From IMG/VR virus record IMGVR_UViG_2541047889_000005, positions 1 through 24,228 of that record: a stretch of DNA of 24,228 bases. One strand, written 5' to 3'. The DNA comes from a virus. Its lineage: Duplodnaviria > Heunggongvirae > Uroviricota > Caudoviricetes. This document shows positions 13,262 to 24,228 of the stretch, piece by piece. Made by a program: the position numbers and the translations under genes. Position 1 is the stretch's first letter. Every line of letters begins with the position of its first letter. The notes beneath the pieces are model-generated. The model ran no database searches. It saw nothing but the letters and a program-made list of their open reading frames with translations, and had not been told where the DNA came from.

Positions 13262-14266
13262 TTATTCTTCTGAATCATCATAAACATCCATTCCTTCGGT
13301 CTGATTTCTAATATAAGAAGTCCCCATAGAATTAGCAATCGCAGTCCGAATTAACCCTACATGAGTGAAAAACACCCCTAACCTAGCACGCTTTAACTCA
13401 GACTCATCATCATAGTCATCTTCATTACTTATAATTCTTCTAACCATTGCCTTATCTTCGTCAATAGCCGAAGGTAGCCCACTCTTTAAAGCGTCAATAC
13501 ACTCACCTACAGTTATAATTTTATTTTTAATTAATTCAGAAAGCAAATCATCATAATTTTCATCATCAGATTTATTATCAGGTGGTAATTCACTTGCAGC
13601 TATCATTTTCAGCAATTCTACGTCAAGCATAGTTCCTCTATCTAGTCTGCTTGTCTCAACATACCCCTCACGCTCTGATAACACTCTTTCAAATTCGAAA
13701 TCAACGACTTCAAGCAAAGCAGATACTCTATTAATTGCTCGCCTAAGAGGAAGTGGAACACTTTGCTCTTTTTTGTATTGCAGTTTATGAGATGCTGCAG
13801 CCCAAATATGCTGAGAAAGCGTTCGTATTTGCACCTCCACTTTCATATTTTTAAAATCACTAAAGGATGGAACTCTTAGCCATTCTTCTGGAGGTTGTAT
13901 TACATAATGATGAGATTGGTACCCAAATCTATCCTCATCCAGTTCATCAAGTTTATTCTCTTGCTTCAAAATAATGAAATGTTCTTTCAGACAAGATATA
14001 ACCTTTTCAACATCTCGCTTAAATAGCATTATTAATCGGATTCCAACATAATCATCCAAGTCAACTATTGACTCAATCTTTAGAGGTTTTCGGTTATCCT
14101 TATTAATAATAGAACTTAATGTTTTGACACGGCTTTCAATTGGAACCCCTAAAGACAATTTATTCTCCGACAAAATAACATCAATTTGCTCAACCATAAC
14201 TCGTCTGAACAATTCCGCAACTGAGCCGTAAATTGAATGCTGTTCTTTTAATTCTTCGTCTGTCAT
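13262..14266 (-). CDS. RelA/SpoT-fold nucleotidyltransferase (small alarmone synthetase-like; candidate toxSAS/CapRel-like fused toxin-antitoxin)
   Basis: 334 aa; synthetase-fold motifs ESRVKTLSSIINK, DYVGIRLIMLF, FGYQSHHYVI, EVQIRTLSQHIWAAASHKLQYK; about 130-aa acidic C-terminal extension; AT-rich; lies between portal gene and cos. Confidence 0.7.
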   Translation of the reverse strand: MTDEELKEQHSIYGSVAELFRRVMVEQIDVILSENKLSLGVPIESRVKTLSSIINKDNRKPLKIESIVDLDDYVGIRLIMLFKRDVEKVISCLKEHFIILKQENKLDELDEDRFGYQSHHYVIQPPEEWLRVPSFSDFKNMKVEVQIRTLSQHIWAAASHKLQYKKEQSVPLPLRRAINRVSALLEVVDFEFERVLSEREGYVETSRLDRGTMLDVELLKMIAASELPPDNKSDDENYDDLLSELIKNKIITVGECIDALKSGLPSAIDEDKAMVRRIISNEDDYDDESELKRARLGVFFTHVGLIRTAIANSMGTSYIRNQTEGMDVYDDSEE

Positions 14267-14383
14267 CTATCTTACCTAACTTATATAAATGAATCAGATA
14301 TAAAACATTGCATAATTTTAATTCAAGTGGACAACATATAAATTATCCGATCTAAACCACTTAAACAACAGGTTTTGCGCGCG

Positions 14384-14402
14384 CTCGTATCCCCGCCACG
14401 CC
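14384..14402 (-). other. cos-like cohesive-end site (P2/186 type)
   Basis: Minus-strand GGCGTGGCGGGGATACGAG; the first 13 nt match my recollection of the P2/186 19-nt cos core (GGCG[A/T]GGCGGGGA...); located next to the portal gene as expected. Confidence 0.5.
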
Positions 14403-14451
14403 TGCCCGCTTTATGTAGTAGTTTTCATGCAGGTGCATGATCTACGCGAAA

Positions 14452-14471
14452 GCCCGCCAGTTCTGGCGGGC
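14452..14471 (-). terminator. GC-rich hairpin downstream of the membrane-protein gene (putative terminator)
   Basis: gcccgccag-tt-ctggcgggc; followed on the minus transcript by UUUCGCG. Confidence 0.4.
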
Positions 14472-14519
14472 CCTAGCAAAAACGATCCTCAAACGATCAT
14501 GCGATCTCATGCAGCATAG

Positions 14520-15362
14520 TCATGCACGATCATTTGACTCAGCATCTGCTGCACGCTTGCTGCGCGAAGATGCACTTTTACTATCAATCTTTCGACAGTT
14601 CTTTCTATCCCTGGCTTCATTTTCTTTAAATTTGTTATATGTCTCAGTATCAAAAAACGAAATTGTTTCAACCTCATCTTTTGGTATGAGCACACGGAAA
14701 TCTTCGATATTAAGCCGAGACATTCCACTTATCACACCACTATCAAGATAATGTTGGTGATAGTTAGTCGTGATACTAATCGTTAGATCATCTTTATCCC
14801 GATATCCGCTTAACATCGGGAGAAGTTCAAGGTGCTCTGAAAGCCCGTTTTCTAACGCCGGACAAGTAACAAGACCAACATAGATTTTGCGAGACGACAG
14901 AGTTGCTATGATCGGAAACTGTCTTGCGGACGCTTCCATGAGTAATGATTCGAAAGCGTTATTACCCACAGCTTTAGCTAAGGCATCCCAGCGACGATCT
15001 CCACGTGATGTGCGTAACTTATTTCCAAAACCTGAAATCGCAGCGAGGACAATTGAAATCATAACCCATGCTATCTGTTTGATTTCATTTATTCTTTGAA
15101 GTTTGTCTTTCGATGAAGACAACATGCCATTAAAACTGTCAGGTGTTAGATTCAAGGCATTAGCCAGCCAACGAAACCCTCCGCTGACGTTCAAAATAAA
15201 GGTGAAAAAACCGCCAAGGAGAAAAAAAACGATACCCCAGGCAGCCACAAAAAAATAAGCGTCCCAGCCGTTGGAACGCTTATATCGGTATCTTGTTGAA
15301 AGTGATAGGTTTACATAAATAAAACCACTAACCAAAATCACTGCTAAAAGTAATGTTGCCAT
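14520..15362 (-). CDS. Hypothetical membrane protein: three N-terminal TM helices plus about 165-aa cytoplasmic domain
   Basis: 280 aa; hydrophobic segments ATLLLAVILVSGFIYV, AYFFVAAWGIVFFLLGGFFTFIL, IAWVMISIVLAAISGF; start overlaps the stop of the upstream 71-aa gene (TAATG). Confidence 0.65.
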   Translation of the reverse strand: MATLLLAVILVSGFIYVNLSLSTRYRYKRSNGWDAYFFVAAWGIVFFLLGGFFTFILNVSGGFRWLANALNLTPDSFNGMLSSSKDKLQRINEIKQIAWVMISIVLAAISGFGNKLRTSRGDRRWDALAKAVGNNAFESLLMEASARQFPIIATLSSRKIYVGLVTCPALENGLSEHLELLPMLSGYRDKDDLTISITTNYHQHYLDSGVISGMSRLNIEDFRVLIPKDEVETISFFDTETYNKFKENEARDRKNCRKIDSKSASSRSKRAADAESNDRA

Positions 15363-15577
15363 TATCTGGTTCTATTAGTTTTCTCTTTTACAGTGCTCGT
15401 TTTGATGCCTTCAAGCTTATCCATCTGTGCCTTGATGGCATCCATTGCTCTTTTGTTAGACAAGTCTACGGACACAAAACCATCTTTACTAAGATTGAGT
15501 TTGTCCTGGTTCTCTTTAAGAACCCTTGCCAGACGTTCAACTGGGTTACCCAGGCTAAATGCGGCGATGCTTGACAT
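15362..15577 (-). CDS. Hypothetical small protein (71 aa), translationally coupled to the downstream membrane protein
   Basis: ATG preceded by a strong GGGGGAG RBS; charged and soluble; 270-bp AT-rich intergenic region upstream. Confidence 0.6.
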   Translation of the reverse strand: MSSIAAFSLGNPVERLARVLKENQDKLNLSKDGFVSVDLSNKRAMDAIKAQMDKLEGIKTSTVKEKTNRTR

Positions 15578-15847
15578 AACTCCCCCTTTTCACATGGCGC
15601 GGAAGTCTACACTCCGACGCCTACAACCTCAACAGATTATCTTTAAAATTTAGACAACAATATCATCTGTTGATTGCGTTACTTAAACTTAAGTTCAATG
15701 CGCTCGATCATGCAAGCTGTTTCTTAAGAACTGTTAATTTCCTGGCATATATAGTGGTTAAGGTAACAAATTGACACTAACGCCTCGCATAGCTCGTTGT
15801 TCAACCTTGCTGACGCCAGAAGCAAGTTCAGACGCCAGCAACGTTTC

Positions 15848-16081
15848 TTAATGCAGCCAGCTGTCGTCTTCCCACACCTTCTGCATAATTTTCATCACTT
15901 GTTTTCTTTCTTCGTCCAGTTGCAATCCGGTCAGTTCCACACCGTTAGAGCTACCTTTGCGGATACGAATTACCATTTTGGGATACAGAGGACGCAGATT
16001 GCGGTAAAGCTCGGATTCAAGGGCGTCCAGGGTAGACTGGCTAATCTTCTGCTCTTTATCGATCATTATTTCAATGCGCAT
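15848..16081 (-). CDS. DinI-family protein (SOS operon; Tum/DinI-like)
   Basis: 77 aa MRIEIMIDKEQKISQSTLDALESELYRNL...EERKQVMKIMQKVWEDDSW aligns along its length with E. coli DinI. Confidence 0.75.
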   Translation of the reverse strand: MRIEIMIDKEQKISQSTLDALESELYRNLRPLYPKMVIRIRKGSSNGVELTGLQLDEERKQVMKIMQKVWEDDSWLH

Positions 16082-16092
16082 AAAAAGTCACC

Positions 16093-16281
16093 TCAACTGA
16101 TGACATCCATTGAGCGGTTGTATTCGTGGGTTCTGATTTTTGCCATGAGTTCATCTGTTAGTTCAGAAACCCACTGCAAAGCCAGCCCCTTCTCTTCATC
16201 ACTACACTCACTAGCCGCTACAAGCTTAAGAAAAAAATCAATGCGCTGGAGCTTCAAAGACTCCAAAAAATAGTCCTGCAT
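16093..16281 (-). CDS. Hypothetical small protein (62 aa), first gene of the LexA-box operon
   Basis: GGAGGA RBS; stop is followed 11 nt later by the DinI-like start with its own GAGGTG RBS. Confidence 0.55.
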   Translation of the reverse strand: MQDYFLESLKLQRIDFFLKLVAASECSDEEKGLALQWVSELTDELMAKIRTHEYNRSMDVIS

Positions 16282-16321
16282 CTTTCCTCCTATGACACCA
16301 AAGCAATACTGTAAATATAAC

Positions 16322-16341
16322 CACTGTTTATATTTACAGTA
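16322..16341. promoter_or_regulatory. LexA operator (SOS box) inside a 13-bp-arm inverted repeat, upstream of the 62-aa/DinI-like operon
   Basis: cactgtttatatttacagta = CTGT-N8-ACAG with AT-rich spacer; part of the larger palindrome TACTGTAAATATA...TATATTTACAGTA (16307-16341). Confidence 0.7.
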
Positions 16342-16432
16342 TATAATAATCTTACTGATGTAAAACGTTTTTTACGTTCATCAGCCTGATATGCCTGGTA
16401 TTATTAAGAGCACGAATTGTTAACCCGCGTAA

Positions 16433-18847
16433 TTAATACAGGTTTCGCCACTTATCATCTTCCTGCAAACGCTGGTTCCGATAGAAGATACGCAGGCCTG
16501 CTCCTGACGGAATACTGCCGCCGCGAAGGAGTAAATCGACCTCTTTCTCGCTACCATCAAATCCTCTGGACTTCAGCTCATAGACTAGCTGCAGTCGCTG
16601 ATGGTCTGTAATTCGCTGTTTGTAGTCTTTACGCCGTTTCGGTTTAACCAGGCGTAACCTTGCTGCCAGTTCCCGGCGCTCTTTTTTGCTCATACTGTGC
16701 AGGTAATCGTGCAACTGCTTGTCATCCATGCGGGTAATGTCCGTTCTGGTGCCCCCATCAGCTGATTTATCTTTCTCCTGTTGGTTCAAATTTTCAGCAA
16801 GGGGACAGTTATTGCCACGAGTCCAAGGGGCGCAAGCGCCCTGGTCGGCTGCCGCCTCCTGAATGTCAACGGCCTTACGAACCATTTTCCACTTCACCGC
16901 ATGAGTGCAGATCTTGCCCTCTGCAATGGGTGACCAGATGCCATAAATACGAATACCGTGATCGCCATAGGCGGTCGGCTCTTCGTTGATTTCATAAGCG
17001 GTTCTGATGAGGTGATATTTGCGGGGAACCAGTACGCCGCCCTGCTTCATGATGTAGGTGGCAAAACAGCCAGCATCAGCGGCAGCCAGGATGGCATCAA
17101 GGCGCGGGTTATCCAGTACCGGCGCACCTGCTTTTTTGTCCCCCTGTTGCCTTGCCGCCTGACCAGCCAGCAATCGCAGTTCACGGTAAGCCTGACGCCC
17201 CGGAATGCCAAAGAAGCGGAATTGCTGAACACGATGCAGAGACGCCCAGGCATTAACGTATTCGGCGTTATCACGCAGGGATTTACCCGTTTCCTTGCTG
17301 ATCTCGCCAGCCAGACCACGCCCGTCAATGTTCTTACTGATGTATTTCGCGATGTAGCTTGTTGGCGTACCTTTGCGCGGGTTTATCAGCTCAGACTTAA
17401 AGCGTGGTTCCGTGTTATTACCCAGCTCCTCGCGGTCTTCACGAATGGCAAACTTACGCAACAAAGCAGTAATGGCGCGGCGATCTTTTTTGCGCATAAA
17501 ACACAACAGGTGCCAGTGAACTGTACCGTCATGATGCGGCTCAGCCACCCGCACGCCATACCAGCGTAATCCGGCTTTGTGCATCGCCTTACGAAATGCA
17601 GCAAACATACCGACCAGATAATCACTGCTTTGTCTTACCGTCGCATTTGTCCAGGTCGGGTTGGGCCTGCCGTTATTTAGCGTGGAATGGAAACGTGACG
17701 GACAGGTGATGGTGTAGAAAACGGCGCAGTCACCGCGCATTTCCGCGATAAGCTCCAGACCTTTAACACAGGCCATCATCTCATTGCGGCGATGCGCAGG
17801 GTTGCTGCTGCTGGCGTTTACCACGTCTTCCATATCCAGCGTGTCGCCGTCTTCGTTCACCAGTTCATGAGAACGGAAAAACTCCAGCGACTTACGGCGC
17901 TGCTCACGTTTATGCATCACGGCTTCATAGCTGACATAGGGAGATGCTTTTTTGCTGACCAGGCAAACAGCACGCAACTGCTCTTCCCGCCATTCGCAAC
18001 GCATCTTCCATAATTTCCGATACCACCAGTCGGCGCATAACATACGCGCCAGCGAACCCGGAATGAGTTCATAAGGCACGGGTTTACGGCGGTTTCTTTT
18101 CCGACGGAGTTGCTCAAACGCAGGCGGGATAACATCCAGACGCAGGGTTTCCGCTGCCACCTTTTCCCATGTCTTGCGGATTTCTTCTGGCGTAACATCA
18201 TCGGTGGCATACAAATCGCCACAAGCTGTATCAAGGCACATGCTCATATGCGCAGCTACCAAGGTGGACAGGCGTTTCACCTGATCCTGACTCATTTCAG
18301 GCAGGATCAGCAGGCCGTCCAGCCCTTCATGGCTTGCCATAAAGCGAAAAGAAGTGGATAGCTGACTGTCGCGTACATGCTCCAGTCGTTCCAAGCATGG
18401 CTTAATCGTCTCACGCAAATAGCGGGAATAAGCCTTTGGCCTGCCCAGGCTGCTGAAGTATTTAATACGTTGCATCAGCGGCTTGCTGATATGGGAAGGC
18501 TGGGCGTTGACGTCCGCCAGAATGGCCATGTCTGGATTAAAACGCTGCTGCTCATGCGCCAGCTTTGCCCGGCTAATTAGCTTATCCTGCTCCATTTCGC
18601 GTTGGACAGGATCACGGGATTCATTAAAGAAATAACGCTCCCAGACCTGATCACTCAGTGCCTCGCGGCGCAGTTGTTCCTGCTCGTTATCGGCAGCGTA
18701 CAGAGTGATCAGGTTTGAAAGCGCAGAAACCGGCGCAACTTCCGCCGGGTCCAGATAAGGGTTAATGGCCTTTTTCGGGCTGTTCCATGAGAATGCTGCG
18801 GCGACCTCGTTAAAGCCGCTGCAGTTGTTCATATCAGCATGGCTCAT
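16433..18847 (-). CDS. A: Replication initiation protein gpA (rolling-circle endonuclease)
   Basis: ORF 16433..18874; probable ATG at 18847 overlapping the dam stop (ATGA); about 800 aa as in P2/186 gpA. Confidence 0.8.
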
Positions 18848-21287: not shown

Positions 21288-21797
21288 TCACAGCAAACCG
21301 AATGAAGCACCGAGGCCAGTCACGGTATCAACTGCACTCGCCATCGCAGGATTAGCCTGTAAACGGGCCTGCAATGAAACAGCCGCCAGCGCCATCAGTC
21401 GTGTTACAGAGTTAATGCTGCTGATAGCATCACGACGACCTGCACTGGTTTTTACATCGCCAGATACCGCACCTGCAGCAACACGCCCGATCTCTGCGGT
21501 TGCACTCATGACGTAATGTGGCAGTTTCTCTTTTGCTACCTCATTAATCGGTACACATGGCAGACAATGAATCTGTGCCAGAAAACCATCTACCAACGTT
21601 GAATCTTCAGTCAGATCGGTAAGCAGCCAGATTTCTGGTGCGGTTAATAAATGAGGTTGAGCTGGGTTCAGCTTGTTCCGCAGAATCTGCACATTCATGC
21701 CCGCACGTTCTGCCAGTTGCACCAGATTGTGGCGCAGTGCGAATGCACGACAGGCTTCATCAAAATGTGGATGTTTGGAAACTTGGTAATCAAACAT
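21288..21797 (-). CDS. cII: CII-like lysogeny-establishment transcriptional activator (coliphage 186 type)
   Basis: ORF 21288..21806; ATG at 21797 gives a 169-aa protein [45 protein letters not shown]... with an HTH; resembles 186 CII as I recall it. Confidence 0.7.
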
Positions 21798-21861
21798 GGT
21801 TTTCAACTCCGAACTTATCGCAAAATCGAACTCAGCGTCTTATTGCGAAAATAGACGTCTA

Positions 21862-22065: not shown

Positions 22066-22210
22066 AAGGCAACATTCCTTCTAGATATGGCTTGTGGCGA
22101 GCCGTTGTTTGTCGTGATTAGTAGTGAAGGCTCCAAAAGAACACTTCTGGTTCAACTTTAAGATCGCTTTTGGAATCTGTCAACGAATTTTGGATTTCTT
22201 TGGAGGACTT
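22066..22210. promoter_or_regulatory. Lysis-lysogeny switch region (face-to-face lytic and lysogenic promoters and operators)
   Basis: About 145-bp AT-rich divergent intergenic region between apl (minus) and cI (plus), as in 186 pR/pL; individual promoters and operators not resolved. Confidence 0.45.
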
Positions 22211-22780
22211 GTGGATTTCAATAGCGGCGGTAAGAAAGCCATAGAACGTTTAGTTGAAGCATATGGGTTCGGTACTCGTCAGGCTCTCTGTGATCATTTA
22301 GGTGTTTCTAAGAGCACCATGGCAACGCGCTATATGCGTGATATTTTTCCAGCAGATTGGGTAATCCAGTGCGCCCTTGAAACGGGCACCTCGCTTAATT
22401 GGCTAACAACAGGGCATGGTTCAAAGCAAGCATCAGCAAATACAAATACTATAGAAGTAGAAAAATATTTATTGTCTGATGGAGCATTGCAGAAAGACGG
22501 TTTTTATATTTTTGATAAGGGATTTCTACCCTCTACGTTTAAAAAACCTTTTGTCATCACAGATAACAATTCTGAATTTATTTGTGATAAAGAATTTGAT
22601 GATATACGTGATGGTAAATGGGTAATAAGTATTGATGGCGAAATAACGATCCGTGACATTACTCGTTTACCCGGTGGAAGAATCTTCGTCGAGGGTGGAA
22701 ACAGAGTCTTCGAATGCAAGATAGAAGACATTGAAATAATTGGTAAAATTATAAGTTTAACAGTCAAGTATGTTAAATAG
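22211..22780 (+). CDS. cI: Immunity repressor CI (186 type)
   Basis: ORF 22124..22780; probable GTG start at 22211 after a GGAGGA RBS gives about 189 aa; N-terminal HTH (LGVSKSTMATRYMRD...LNWLTTGHG) and a C-terminal domain. Confidence 0.7.
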   Translation: MDFNSGGKKAIERLVEAYGFGTRQALCDHLGVSKSTMATRYMRDIFPADWVIQCALETGTSLNWLTTGHGSKQASANTNTIEVEKYLLSDGALQKDGFYIFDKGFLPSTFKKPFVITDNNSEFICDKEFDDIRDGKWVISIDGEITIRDITRLPGGRIFVEGGNRVFECKIEDIEIIGKIISLTVKYVK

Positions 22781-22795
22781 TACCGGGAGGAAACT

Positions 22796-22987
22796 ATGCT
22801 TGGTAAGGTATTTTTTGTGGTTTTGTCATGTTCTTTGTTATTAAACCCACTAACTACCTATGCTAGAAATTATCCCTGCTCAGGGAAAAAGGGAGGTGTT
22901 TCTCACTGTACCTCAGATGGCAAATTCGTTTGCAATGATGGAACTATTAGTAAATCCAAAAAAATCTGTACTAAAAACTCACGATAA
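22796..22987 (+). CDS. Small secreted cysteine-rich protein (63 aa) between cI and int
   Basis: Strong GGAGG RBS; N-terminal signal peptide [23 protein letters not shown]; four Cys in the mature part; AT-rich. Confidence 0.6.
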
Positions 22988-23175
22988 TTTTTGTTTTTAT
23001 ATCTGCGTCTAAAATAAAAATGAGCCGCAGGTTAACCGCAAAAGTTACATGCTCACATAGCAAAAAGAATAGCCAACTTCATTATGGCTTCAGTGAGATG
23101 TATGGTCGTAGGATTTCATACATTGACACTGGTTATATATACAGTAAAAATGCTCTCTACTGGAGGGCATTTTTT

Positions 23176-24228
23176 ATGGCAGTACGAAAACTCACCACAG
23201 GGAAATGGCTTTGCGAATGTTACCCCGCCGGACGAAGTGGGCGTCGTGTGCGTAAACAATTCGCCACCAAAGGCGAAGCTCTGGCTTTTGAGCGTCACAC
23301 GATGGAAGAAACCGAATCAAAGCCCTGGCTGGGCGAATCAGTGGATCGTCGAACCCTGAAAGACGTGGTTGAGCTATGGTTCAAACTACATGGTAAATCT
23401 CTGACTGCTGGACAGCATGTCTATGACAAATTGCTGCTGATGGTTGACGCTCTAGGCAATCCTCTTGCAACCGATCTCACCTCTAAAATGTTTGCCCACT
23501 ATCGAGATAAACGCCTTACTGGTGAAATCTACTTCAGTGAAAAATGGAAGAAAGGAGCAAGCCCAGTTACTGTTAACCTGGAGCAAAGCCATCTAAGCAG
23601 CGTTTTCAGAGAACTTTCCCGCCTGGGTGAATGGACACTTCCAAACCCATTAGAGAAGATGCGCAAATTCACTATCGCAGAAAAGGAAATGGCATGGCTT
23701 ACACATGAGCAGATCATCGAATTACTGTCTGACTGCAAACGTCAGAACCCAATTCTGGCACTGGTGGTAAAAATATGTCTAAGTACAGGCGCACGTTGGC
23801 GAGAAGCAATCAATCTTACCCGCTCACAGGTCACCAAGTACCGAATCACCTTTGTGAGAACGAAGGGGAAGAAAAACAGAAGCATCCCTATCAGTAAAGA
23901 GCTTTACGAAGAGATCATGGCGCTTGATGGGTTCAATTTCTTCACAGACTGCTATTTTCAATTTTTATCCGTGATGGAAAAAACGTCTATCGTGCTCCCT
24001 CGCGGTCAACTCACACACGTTCTGCGCCATACGTTTGCGGCGCACTTCATGATGTCGGGTGGAAACATTCTGGCCTTACAAAAAATTCTCGGACACCACG
24101 ATATAAAAATGACTATGCGTTACGCACATCTGGCACCGGATCATCTGGAAACGGCGCTCCGTTTCAATCCTCTGGCAACGCTGCCAAGTGGCGACAAAGT
24201 GGCGGCAGCGGTTGGCATTACCCCGTAA
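23176..24228 (+). CDS. int: Tyrosine integrase (P2 family)
   Basis: ORF 23020..24228; ATG at 23176 after a GGAGGG RBS (MAVRKLTTGKWLCECYPAGRSGRRV...); C-terminal catalytic region ...HVLRHTFAAHFMMSGGNILALQKILGHHDIKMTMRYAHL (R-H-R-Y type); stop at the window's right edge. Confidence 0.85.
   Translation: MAVRKLTTGKWLCECYPAGRSGRRVRKQFATKGEALAFERHTMEETESKPWLGESVDRRTLKDVVELWFKLHGKSLTAGQHVYDKLLLMVDALGNPLATDLTSKMFAHYRDKRLTGEIYFSEKWKKGASPVTVNLEQSHLSSVFRELSRLGEWTLPNPLEKMRKFTIAEKEMAWLTHEQIIELLSDCKRQNPILALVVKICLSTGARWREAINLTRSQVTKYRITFVRTKGKKNRSIPISKELYEEIMALDGFNFFTDCYFQFLSVMEKTSIVLPRGQLTHVLRHTFAAHFMMSGGNILALQKILGHHDIKMTMRYAHLAPDHLETALRFNPLATLPSGDKVAAAVGITP

Follow-up and report, generated by a model that had tools for sequence, protein, structure and literature searches.

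The stretch of viral DNA analysed here (IMG/VR record IMGVR_UViG_2541047889_000005, positions 1 to 24,228; the window, 24,228 nucleotides in all) comes from a member of the Peduoviridae of the 186/Fels-2 type. On its minus strand a gene for an 813-amino acid (aa) homologue of the replication protein A of P2 and 186 ends at position 16433, and directly downstream, in the same orientation, lies a module of two small open reading frames (ORFs) preceded by LexA boxes. This location, after gene A, is that of p95-tum in phage 186. The features of the module, in window coordinates, are as follows:

16359-16364, minus strand: putative -35 hexamer TTTACA, read from the sequence as the equivalent of that of 186 p95
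16336-16341, minus strand: putative -10 hexamer TACTGT, within LexA box 1, in the same layout as in 186 p95
16322-16341, minus strand: LexA box 1, TACTGTAAATATAAACAGTG, a perfect CTGT-N8-ACAG matching 17 of 20 positions of the consensus TACTGTATATATATACAGTA
16307-16326, minus strand: LexA box 2, CAGTGGTTATATTTACAGTA, matching 15 of 20 positions by hand count, core GTG-N10-CAG
16306-16342, either strand: 37-bp near-perfect palindrome formed by the two overlapping, AT-rich LexA boxes
16093-16281, minus strand: tumA-like gene, 62 aa, ATG at 16281, ribosome-binding site GGAGG at 16286-16290; product predicted to be a CI antirepressor
15848-16081, minus strand: dinI-like gene, 77 aa, equivalent of tumB, with its own ribosome-binding site GAGG at 16091-16094

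A first-pass annotation, made from the sequence alone, had described a canonical CTGT-N8-ACAG LexA operator at 16322-16341, a 62-aa ORF about 40 bp downstream of it and a DinI-family ORF with its own ribosome-binding site. All three elements were borne out: 40 bp separate the end of the canonical box from the ATG at 16281, and the GAGG of the dinI-like gene stands 9 nt ahead of its ATG, where it overlaps the stop codon of the 62-aa ORF. The two ORFs are 11 nt apart after this stop codon and in different reading frames, as are tumA and dinI of Fels-2. In MLG42 (locus L010, 1201-1635) and 500465-1 (L012) the two genes share one frame, with only the stop codon and a few codons between them, and a single stop-codon change in loci of this type could yield a 186-like fusion. 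The junction in the window also holds a weak hairpin of 6 pairs followed by TTTTT (16087-16104, minus strand), which extends over the stop codon of tumA and the ribosome-binding site of dinI, occurs at chance frequency, is retained in 813R9 and Fels-2, and is missing from SopEphi, MLG42 and PSP3; it could affect translation of the DinI-like protein.

The 498-bp module is identical (100%) to sequences in E. coli chromosomes and is present in 1125 of 5426 complete E. coli genomes (~21%), while many Klebsiella, Escherichia and Salmonella phages carry it at 92-97% identity. Both ORFs are under strong purifying selection, with ratios of nonsynonymous to synonymous substitution (dN/dS) of 0.06-0.10 at dS about 0.9 (0.09 for the 62-aa ORF, 0.06-0.10 for the dinI-like ORF). 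From these data and those given below, we conclude that the region very probably serves a 186/Fels-2-type P2-like prophage as its SOS-induction operon, here in the split version with tumA followed by a dinI-like tumB.

The identity of the downstream gene was readily established. The 77-aa ORF matched the Pfam family DinI (PF06183) over profile positions 1-63 of 63 with 81.5 bits (5.4e-23; cut-off 24.2), matched the structure of E. coli DinI (PDB 1GHH) with an E-value of 4e-6, and aligned to residues 71-145 of 186 Tum with 40% identity (E 2e-23). Like E. coli DinI it is a full-length member of the family, with an acidic C-terminal helix (WEDDSW); unlike the chromosomal protein, it is phage-encoded and co-transcribed with a predicted antirepressor.

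For the 62-aa ORF, neither a Pfam family nor a PDB sequence match was found, and PHROGs returned only families of unknown function (phrog_698). It belongs to an extensive family in Enterobacterales, with members of 55-75 aa that include Fels-2 STM2728 (98.4% identical) and SopEphi orf10 (88.7%). A hidden Markov model (HMM) built from 31 family members matched residues 6-48 of 186 Tum (35 bits, E 5e-7 at Z = 1e6) as well as the 60-aa "tum protein" of Yersinia phage vB_YenM_06.16-2 (36 bits). When the family was compared by hhalign with that of the 186 Tum N-terminus, residues 2-46 aligned to residues 2-46 with 96.5% probability (E 7.6e-10), and the two share a motif that reads roughly ExxxxxR[IV][DE]xxxxLxxxxxCxxxx[KR]ExAxxWxxEL. 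An AlphaFold model of the 62-aa protein is a two-helix hairpin (predicted local distance difference test score, pLDDT, 85.8), for which Foldseek found only generic helical matches in the PDB (E > 1). On this profile evidence the 62-aa protein is a remote homologue of the N-terminal, non-DinI domain of 186 Tum. The earlier proposal that the coding capacity of 186 tum is here divided between two ORFs therefore holds, with the dinI-like ORF corresponding to Tum 71-145 and the 62-aa ORF to Tum 2-46; the former aligned to Tum outright and the latter through profiles, not by BLASTP.

The 62-aa protein carries the PGAP name hypothetical, and a practical outcome of the analysis is one of annotation: the gene can be named as TumA, a Tum-type antirepressor. 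A few records call TumA homologues "levan regulatory (domain) protein", a name for which this analysis found no support and which looks like a propagated misannotation. Many distant members of the family (P0147, P0149, P0152, P0155, P0172, P0177, P0181) are extended at the C-terminus by a glycine-rich stretch, ...NPQxGG...GGxx(L/F)Q, whose last residues are LQ or FQ; TumA of the window is without it.

Upstream of these genes, the putative promoter has the layout TTTACA-N17-TACTGT, compared with TTCACA-N18-TACTGT for annotated 186 p95, and TTTACA and TATACTGT are kept in SopEphi, MLG42 and ST437phi4.1. An alternative -10, TATACT with a 15-nt spacer, may be used instead. At the sequence level, LexA box 1 overlaps the putative -10. 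The bare pattern CTGT-N8-ACAG is weakly significant, being expected 0.32 times per window and found at least once in 27 of 100 shuffles; the 20-mer consensus with at most 3 mismatches was found in none of 100 shuffles, and all 12 related Peduoviridae phage loci examined have a LexA box ahead of their tumA-like gene.

The first-pass annotation had set the canonical operator within a palindrome with 13-bp arms. The palindrome is present, but its arms are longer: 18 nt and 94% complementary (16306-16323 and 16325-16342), including perfect arms of 15 nt. We found that the repeat coincides with two overlapping LexA boxes whose cores (16324-16339 and 16309-16324) share 1 bp, position 16324, in the arrangement of a colicin-type double operator. 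The window has a single occurrence of the dual pattern CTGT-N8-MCAGTGG-N8-ACAG, and 100 shuffles had none. All of the Fels-2-type clade (the window, 813R9, Fels-2, SopEphi, MLG42, ST437phi4.1 and 500465-1) have the operator CTGT-N8-ACAGTGG-N8-ACAG, and a single LexA box is found in 186, PSP3, YenM, ESSI-2 and ev040. At least 119 viral contigs contain the dual pattern, with a TumA-like ORF no more than 250 nt downstream in at least 96 and a DinI ORF as well in at least 86.

A near-perfect inverted repeat lying 90 nt past the stop codon of gene A, with a U-rich stretch after it on the transcribed strand and a non-canonical left half in its second box (GTGG), might be a separate element, such as the operator of a phage regulator or a hairpin that terminates transcripts running on from gene A, and not a second LexA site. 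Comparison of the 96 operators among the matches listed makes this very unlikely. The spacer of box 2 varies across these relatives (TTATGTAT, TTATACAT, TTATGCAT and others), whereas its TGG and ACAG half-sites are fixed, and box 1 shows no changes that compensate for those in the box-2 spacer, so the conserved feature is the pair of protein half-sites and not a stem. The perfect palindrome of the window is itself a rare variant (2 of the 96 among the matches listed). An RNA hairpin or terminator, tried as an explanation for the palindrome, was rejected, the relatives having no compensatory changes. The palindrome is thus better read, from these comparisons, as a second, overlapping LexA box.

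The same 31-bp architecture is shared with the LexA double operator of colicin genes. A 44-bp operator query matched 932 plasmid records, small Col-type plasmids included, and in the two plasmids inspected, pCKO3 (TATACTGTATATAAAACCAGTGGTTATATGTACAGTATT) and a ColE1-type plasmid, genes for colicin-like bacteriocins begin shortly downstream of the match; over 42 bp, pCKO3 and the query are 88% identical. Colicin and cloacin operators follow the pattern CTGT-N8-(A/C)CAGTGG-N8-ACAG, with box 2 beginning GTG as it does here. The boxes of colicin promoters lie downstream of the -10, whereas box 1 of the window overlaps the presumed -10, and the genes downstream are unrelated. As colicin operators bind two LexA dimers simultaneously (PMC2994835, citing Lu & Chak 1996), two dimers would by analogy occupy the operator of the window, and repression may likewise be tighter, and induction later, than with a single box.

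The first-pass annotation had also raised the question of whether antirepressor activity resides in the 62-aa protein, the DinI-like protein or both. In 186, Tum binds CI and blocks its DNA binding, and tum is split in Fels-2 and PSP3 (PMC3121763). Both parts of 186 Tum form one polypeptide, and gene fusion suggests physical or functional coupling; moreover, the two split genes are co-transcribed, with the tight 11-nt spacing in 86 of 96 dual-box loci among the matches listed. The DinI-like protein might therefore be the antirepressor, or both proteins might be needed as a complex amounting to a non-covalent version of fused Tum, in which the 62-aa protein would be a mere adaptor. We consider this quite unlikely on several grounds. 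A LexA box and a TumA-like gene are present, with no DinI gene in the flanks inspected, in Cronobacter phage ESSI-2, Escherichia phage ev040 and Yersinia phage vB_YenM_06.16-2, an observation that favours TumA as the antirepressor. The upstream gene of PSP3 has been reported as the antirepressor, and induction of Gifsy prophages is unaffected by dinI deletions (both PMC3121763), while the DinI-only products that 186 makes from internal starts are annotated as modulators of induction, not as antirepressors. DinI is also conserved where TumA and CI diverge together: the DinI-like protein of the window is ~77% identical to PSP3 TumB (hand count), whereas PSP3 TumA scores 3.8 bits against the HMM of the window TumA family, below detection by BLAST or HMM. 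Since the DinI part stays similar while the TumA part has diverged, TumA is the variable part and the one that bears specificity. The question is thus mostly settled, with the 62-aa protein as the favoured antirepressor.

The predicted target of TumA is encoded elsewhere in the window:

22124-22780, plus strand: 186-type CI repressor gene, true start uncertain; PHROG category transcriptional repressor

This ORF is 33% identical to 186 CI (E 1e-37). The ORF at 21288-21806 is 69% identical to 186 CII, and a small Apl/Cox-like ORF lies between the CII and CI genes. We compared TumA and CI across the phages that share the gene. TumA of the window is 98-100% identical to that of 813R9, the 4LV2017-type Klebsiella phages, Kp4845-2, Kp4865-2 and Fels-2, and the CI proteins of these phages are just 38-58% identical to that of the window. 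The divergence is uneven, with 71-83% identity in the group over the first ~65 aligned residues of CI, the helix-turn-helix domain, and 24-41% over the remainder. In a set of 61 unique TumA/CI pairs from viral contigs, comparisons in which TumA was at least 95% identical had a median identity of 78% for the CI N-terminal part (minimum 58%) and of 33% for the rest; TumA identity correlated with the former at a Spearman coefficient of 0.49 and with the latter at 0.23 (61 pairs), values that are descriptive only since the pairs are not independent.

A TumA this much more conserved than CI looks as if its partner were some other, more conserved molecule, and public resources label the 62-aa protein hypothetical or of unknown function. 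It might accordingly be SOS-induced in another role, for example against a host target, with the prophage induced by another route. That the protein is homologous to the Tum N-terminal domain and shares the position and regulation of tum, that the CI N-terminal domain is conserved where TumA is shared and is the part that TumA identity tracks more closely, and that the literature on Fels-2, SopEphi and PSP3 speaks against another role, together render this highly improbable. Our working hypothesis for the antirepressor reading is instead that the docking site of TumA is a conserved surface on the DNA-binding domain of CI, in which case TumA may act across immunity types.

The operon anatomy, the relationship of each ORF to one half of Tum, the conservation of the boxes and the purifying selection on both ORFs are direct observations; LexA binding, transcription and TumA-CI binding at this element are predictions from sequence. 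Several points weigh against the interpretation as a whole. The promoter hexamers are weak, and a consensus promoter and terminator scan did not call the SOS promoter, returning only the weak hairpin at the tumA/dinI junction at its chance frequency. In box 2 the left half is degenerate, and occupancy is predicted purely by colicin analogy. BLASTP gave no alignment between the 62-aa ORF and 186 Tum, so their link rests on profiles. The evidence for the upstream gene of PSP3 is a personal communication cited second-hand, and the fusion of both parts in 186 suggests that the two proteins work together, so that DinI may contribute to antirepression or have a helper role in it. Finally, a near-invariant TumA facing divergent CI proteins is unexpected for a specific pair and requires the conserved docking surface to be assumed.

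The following course of events would be consistent with these data and with what is reported for relatives, namely LexA control and antirepression in 186, upstream-gene activity in PSP3 and SOS-driven Tum in SopEphi. In an undamaged lysogen, LexA would sit on the two overlapping boxes, covering the -10 and the transcription start, and hold the operon tightly off. After DNA damage, activated RecA would promote self-cleavage of LexA and the promoter would fire. TumA, as a 62-aa helical hairpin, would then bind CI stoichiometrically, presumably through the CI N-terminal domain, and keep it off its operators; with CI lost, the early lytic promoter (Apl, CII, A and others) would be derepressed, leading to excision and lytic growth. 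The co-transcribed DinI-like protein may act on the host side, on RecA filaments, to tune the SOS signal, and would not be the antirepressor. The presence of a double LexA box, presumably bound by two dimers, would make induction tight and late, as suits a cell-killing product.

Beyond the dinI-like gene, two further elements lie at the 3' end of the operon:

15803-15845, minus strand: conserved stem-loop right after the dinI stop codon, minimum free energy -28.7 kcal/mol, z = -2.0; positional counterpart of 186 t95a
15777-15806, minus strand: sequence-conserved motif of 30 nt, GGTTGAACAACGAG-N6-CGAGGCGTTAG, past the hairpin

Across 22 relatives the sequence of the stem differs and its pairing is kept, with compensatory changes in 10 of 13 pairs. 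The stem-loop has no U-run on the operon strand; on the opposite strand, CGTTTCTT follows the stem. A search of 15300-16500 against Rfam gave one match, with an E-value of 0.99 and far below the gathering score. We suggest, with low confidence, that the stem-loop is an operon terminator or 3'-stabiliser and the border of a cargo hotspot. Megablast similarity to other phages stops at ~15777, where variable cargo starts. Here the cargo consists of three ORFs (71, 280 and 334 aa; 13262-15577, minus strand) between the SOS operon and the portal gene, and in relatives the same position is taken by a gene for a TIR-domain protein, one for a Hypoth_Ymh protein, or orf97. Hydrophobic segments are predicted in the N-terminal part of the 280-aa protein, a member of phrog_3630 (unknown function). 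With PADLOC the 334-aa protein gave a weak match to PDC-S33, a candidate defence family (E 2e-16), and the 71-aa and 280-aa ORFs gave none. This stretch is probably a hotspot for defence genes or morons.

A second LexA-type box, CACTGGTTATATATACAGTA, was observed in front of the integrase gene (23127-23146, plus strand). It matches 17 of 20 consensus positions, a score for which none is expected in shuffles, and sits in the spacer of a promoter, TTGACA (23123-23128)-N16/17-TAAAAAT, within the region 23123-23178. The ATG at 23176 (MAVRKLTTGKW), probably the true start of int, comes 30 nt later. Both 813R9 and 4LV2017 retain the box, which is a canonical CTGT-N8-ACAG in ESSI2_ev129, while the flanks diverge. 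In viral contigs, 88 of 98 sites of the form CATTGACACTG[GT]-N8-ACAGT precede an integrase homologue, whose start lies ~30 nt downstream in 74 of the 88. The box is absent from 186 and Fels-2, where cI and int abut. Between the two genes the window has a 63-aa ORF (22796-22987, plus strand) with a signal-peptide-like N-terminus and several cysteines, followed by an AT-rich stretch; the ORF looks like a small secreted moron that sets int apart from the cI transcript. No mention of a LexA box at the int promoter came up in a literature search. Judged by these sites, the integrase of this subgroup may be under its own SOS-controlled promoter.

Taken together, the operator, TumA and int observations allow a broader proposal, which we offer tentatively and regard as rather doubtful in its full form: that the Fels-2-type lineage carries a general-purpose, two-point SOS circuit in place of a private pair of repressor and antirepressor, in which a nearly invariant TumA, docked on the conserved N-terminal domain of CI, inactivates many heteroimmune CI proteins in trans, a double LexA operator provides late, all-or-none firing, and a LexA box in the promoter spacer controls a dedicated int promoter. 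If so, TumA would induce co-resident P2-like prophages together, and the supply of integrase would depend on SOS as well. The module is of wider relevance in that it sets when very common P2-like prophages kill their host and spread; its hosts include about one fifth of complete E. coli genomes, along with Klebsiella and Salmonella, and its carriers include the virulence-converting SopEphi. The double operator, the invariant TumA facing divergent CI and the int LexA box translate into predictions on how tight and how collective the response of these prophages to DNA damage would be. A literature search on TumA/TumB returned only unrelated papers. Modestly new here are the finding that TumA is decoupled from the C-terminal domain of CI, the int LexA box and, perhaps, the colicin-type double operator and the formal link by profiles between the "hypothetical" 62-aa family and Tum.

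Among known systems, the operons dinI-gfoA/gftA of Gifsy-1/2/3 in Salmonella are likewise LexA-controlled prophage operons that pair a DinI homologue with a small antirepressor, which in Gifsy binds a non-cleavable repressor (PMC3121763). In these lambdoid, not P2-like, phages dinI comes first, and the antirepressors and repressors are unrelated in sequence to those of the window. The p95-tum-orf97 operon of 186 is closer: it is LexA-repressed, with the box over a -10 of TACTGT, lies after gene A in a P2-like phage of the CI/Apl/CII type, and encodes, like the pair described here, a Tum N-terminal domain and a DinI-like part, with a free DinI-like product also made from an internal start. For 186, p95-tum alone suffices for the ultraviolet (UV) response of a CI switch reporter (PMC7708051). 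The 186 product is one fused protein of 146 aa behind a single LexA box, followed by orf97 and the terminator t95a with its U-run, whereas the window has two ORFs, a double overlapping box, a covarying hairpin without a U-run and an N-terminal domain of ~18% identity. There is no single fused Tum followed by orf97 in the window, and no orf97 homologue was found when the 280-aa downstream ORF, one of the three cargo ORFs, was compared. With its two ORFs set apart by a stop codon and 11 nt and in different frames, the element fits the split tumA/tumB subtype and not the 186 form.

This split arrangement is that of PSP3 tumA/tumB, Fels-2 STM2728/STM2726.1 and SopEphi orf10/orf11. In the GenBank record of PSP3, tumA is described as "similar to 5' end 186 tum; UV induction of prophage" and tumB as "similar to dinI and 3' end of 186 tum"; PSP3 TumA is of the 186-like sequence type, without detectable BLAST or HMM similarity to that of the window, and its operon has a single LexA box. 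According to reviews, 186, PSP3, Fels-2 and SopEphi owe their UV inducibility to tum (PMC2771037), and inflammation-driven SOS has been reported to raise Tum expression in SopEphi (PMC9827884). Fels-2 and SopEphi have the double box, as does the window, and Fels-2 differs from it in the genes downstream of dinI. The interpretation as an SOS-induction operon is supported, and the module is an already known one, essentially identical to that of Fels-2.

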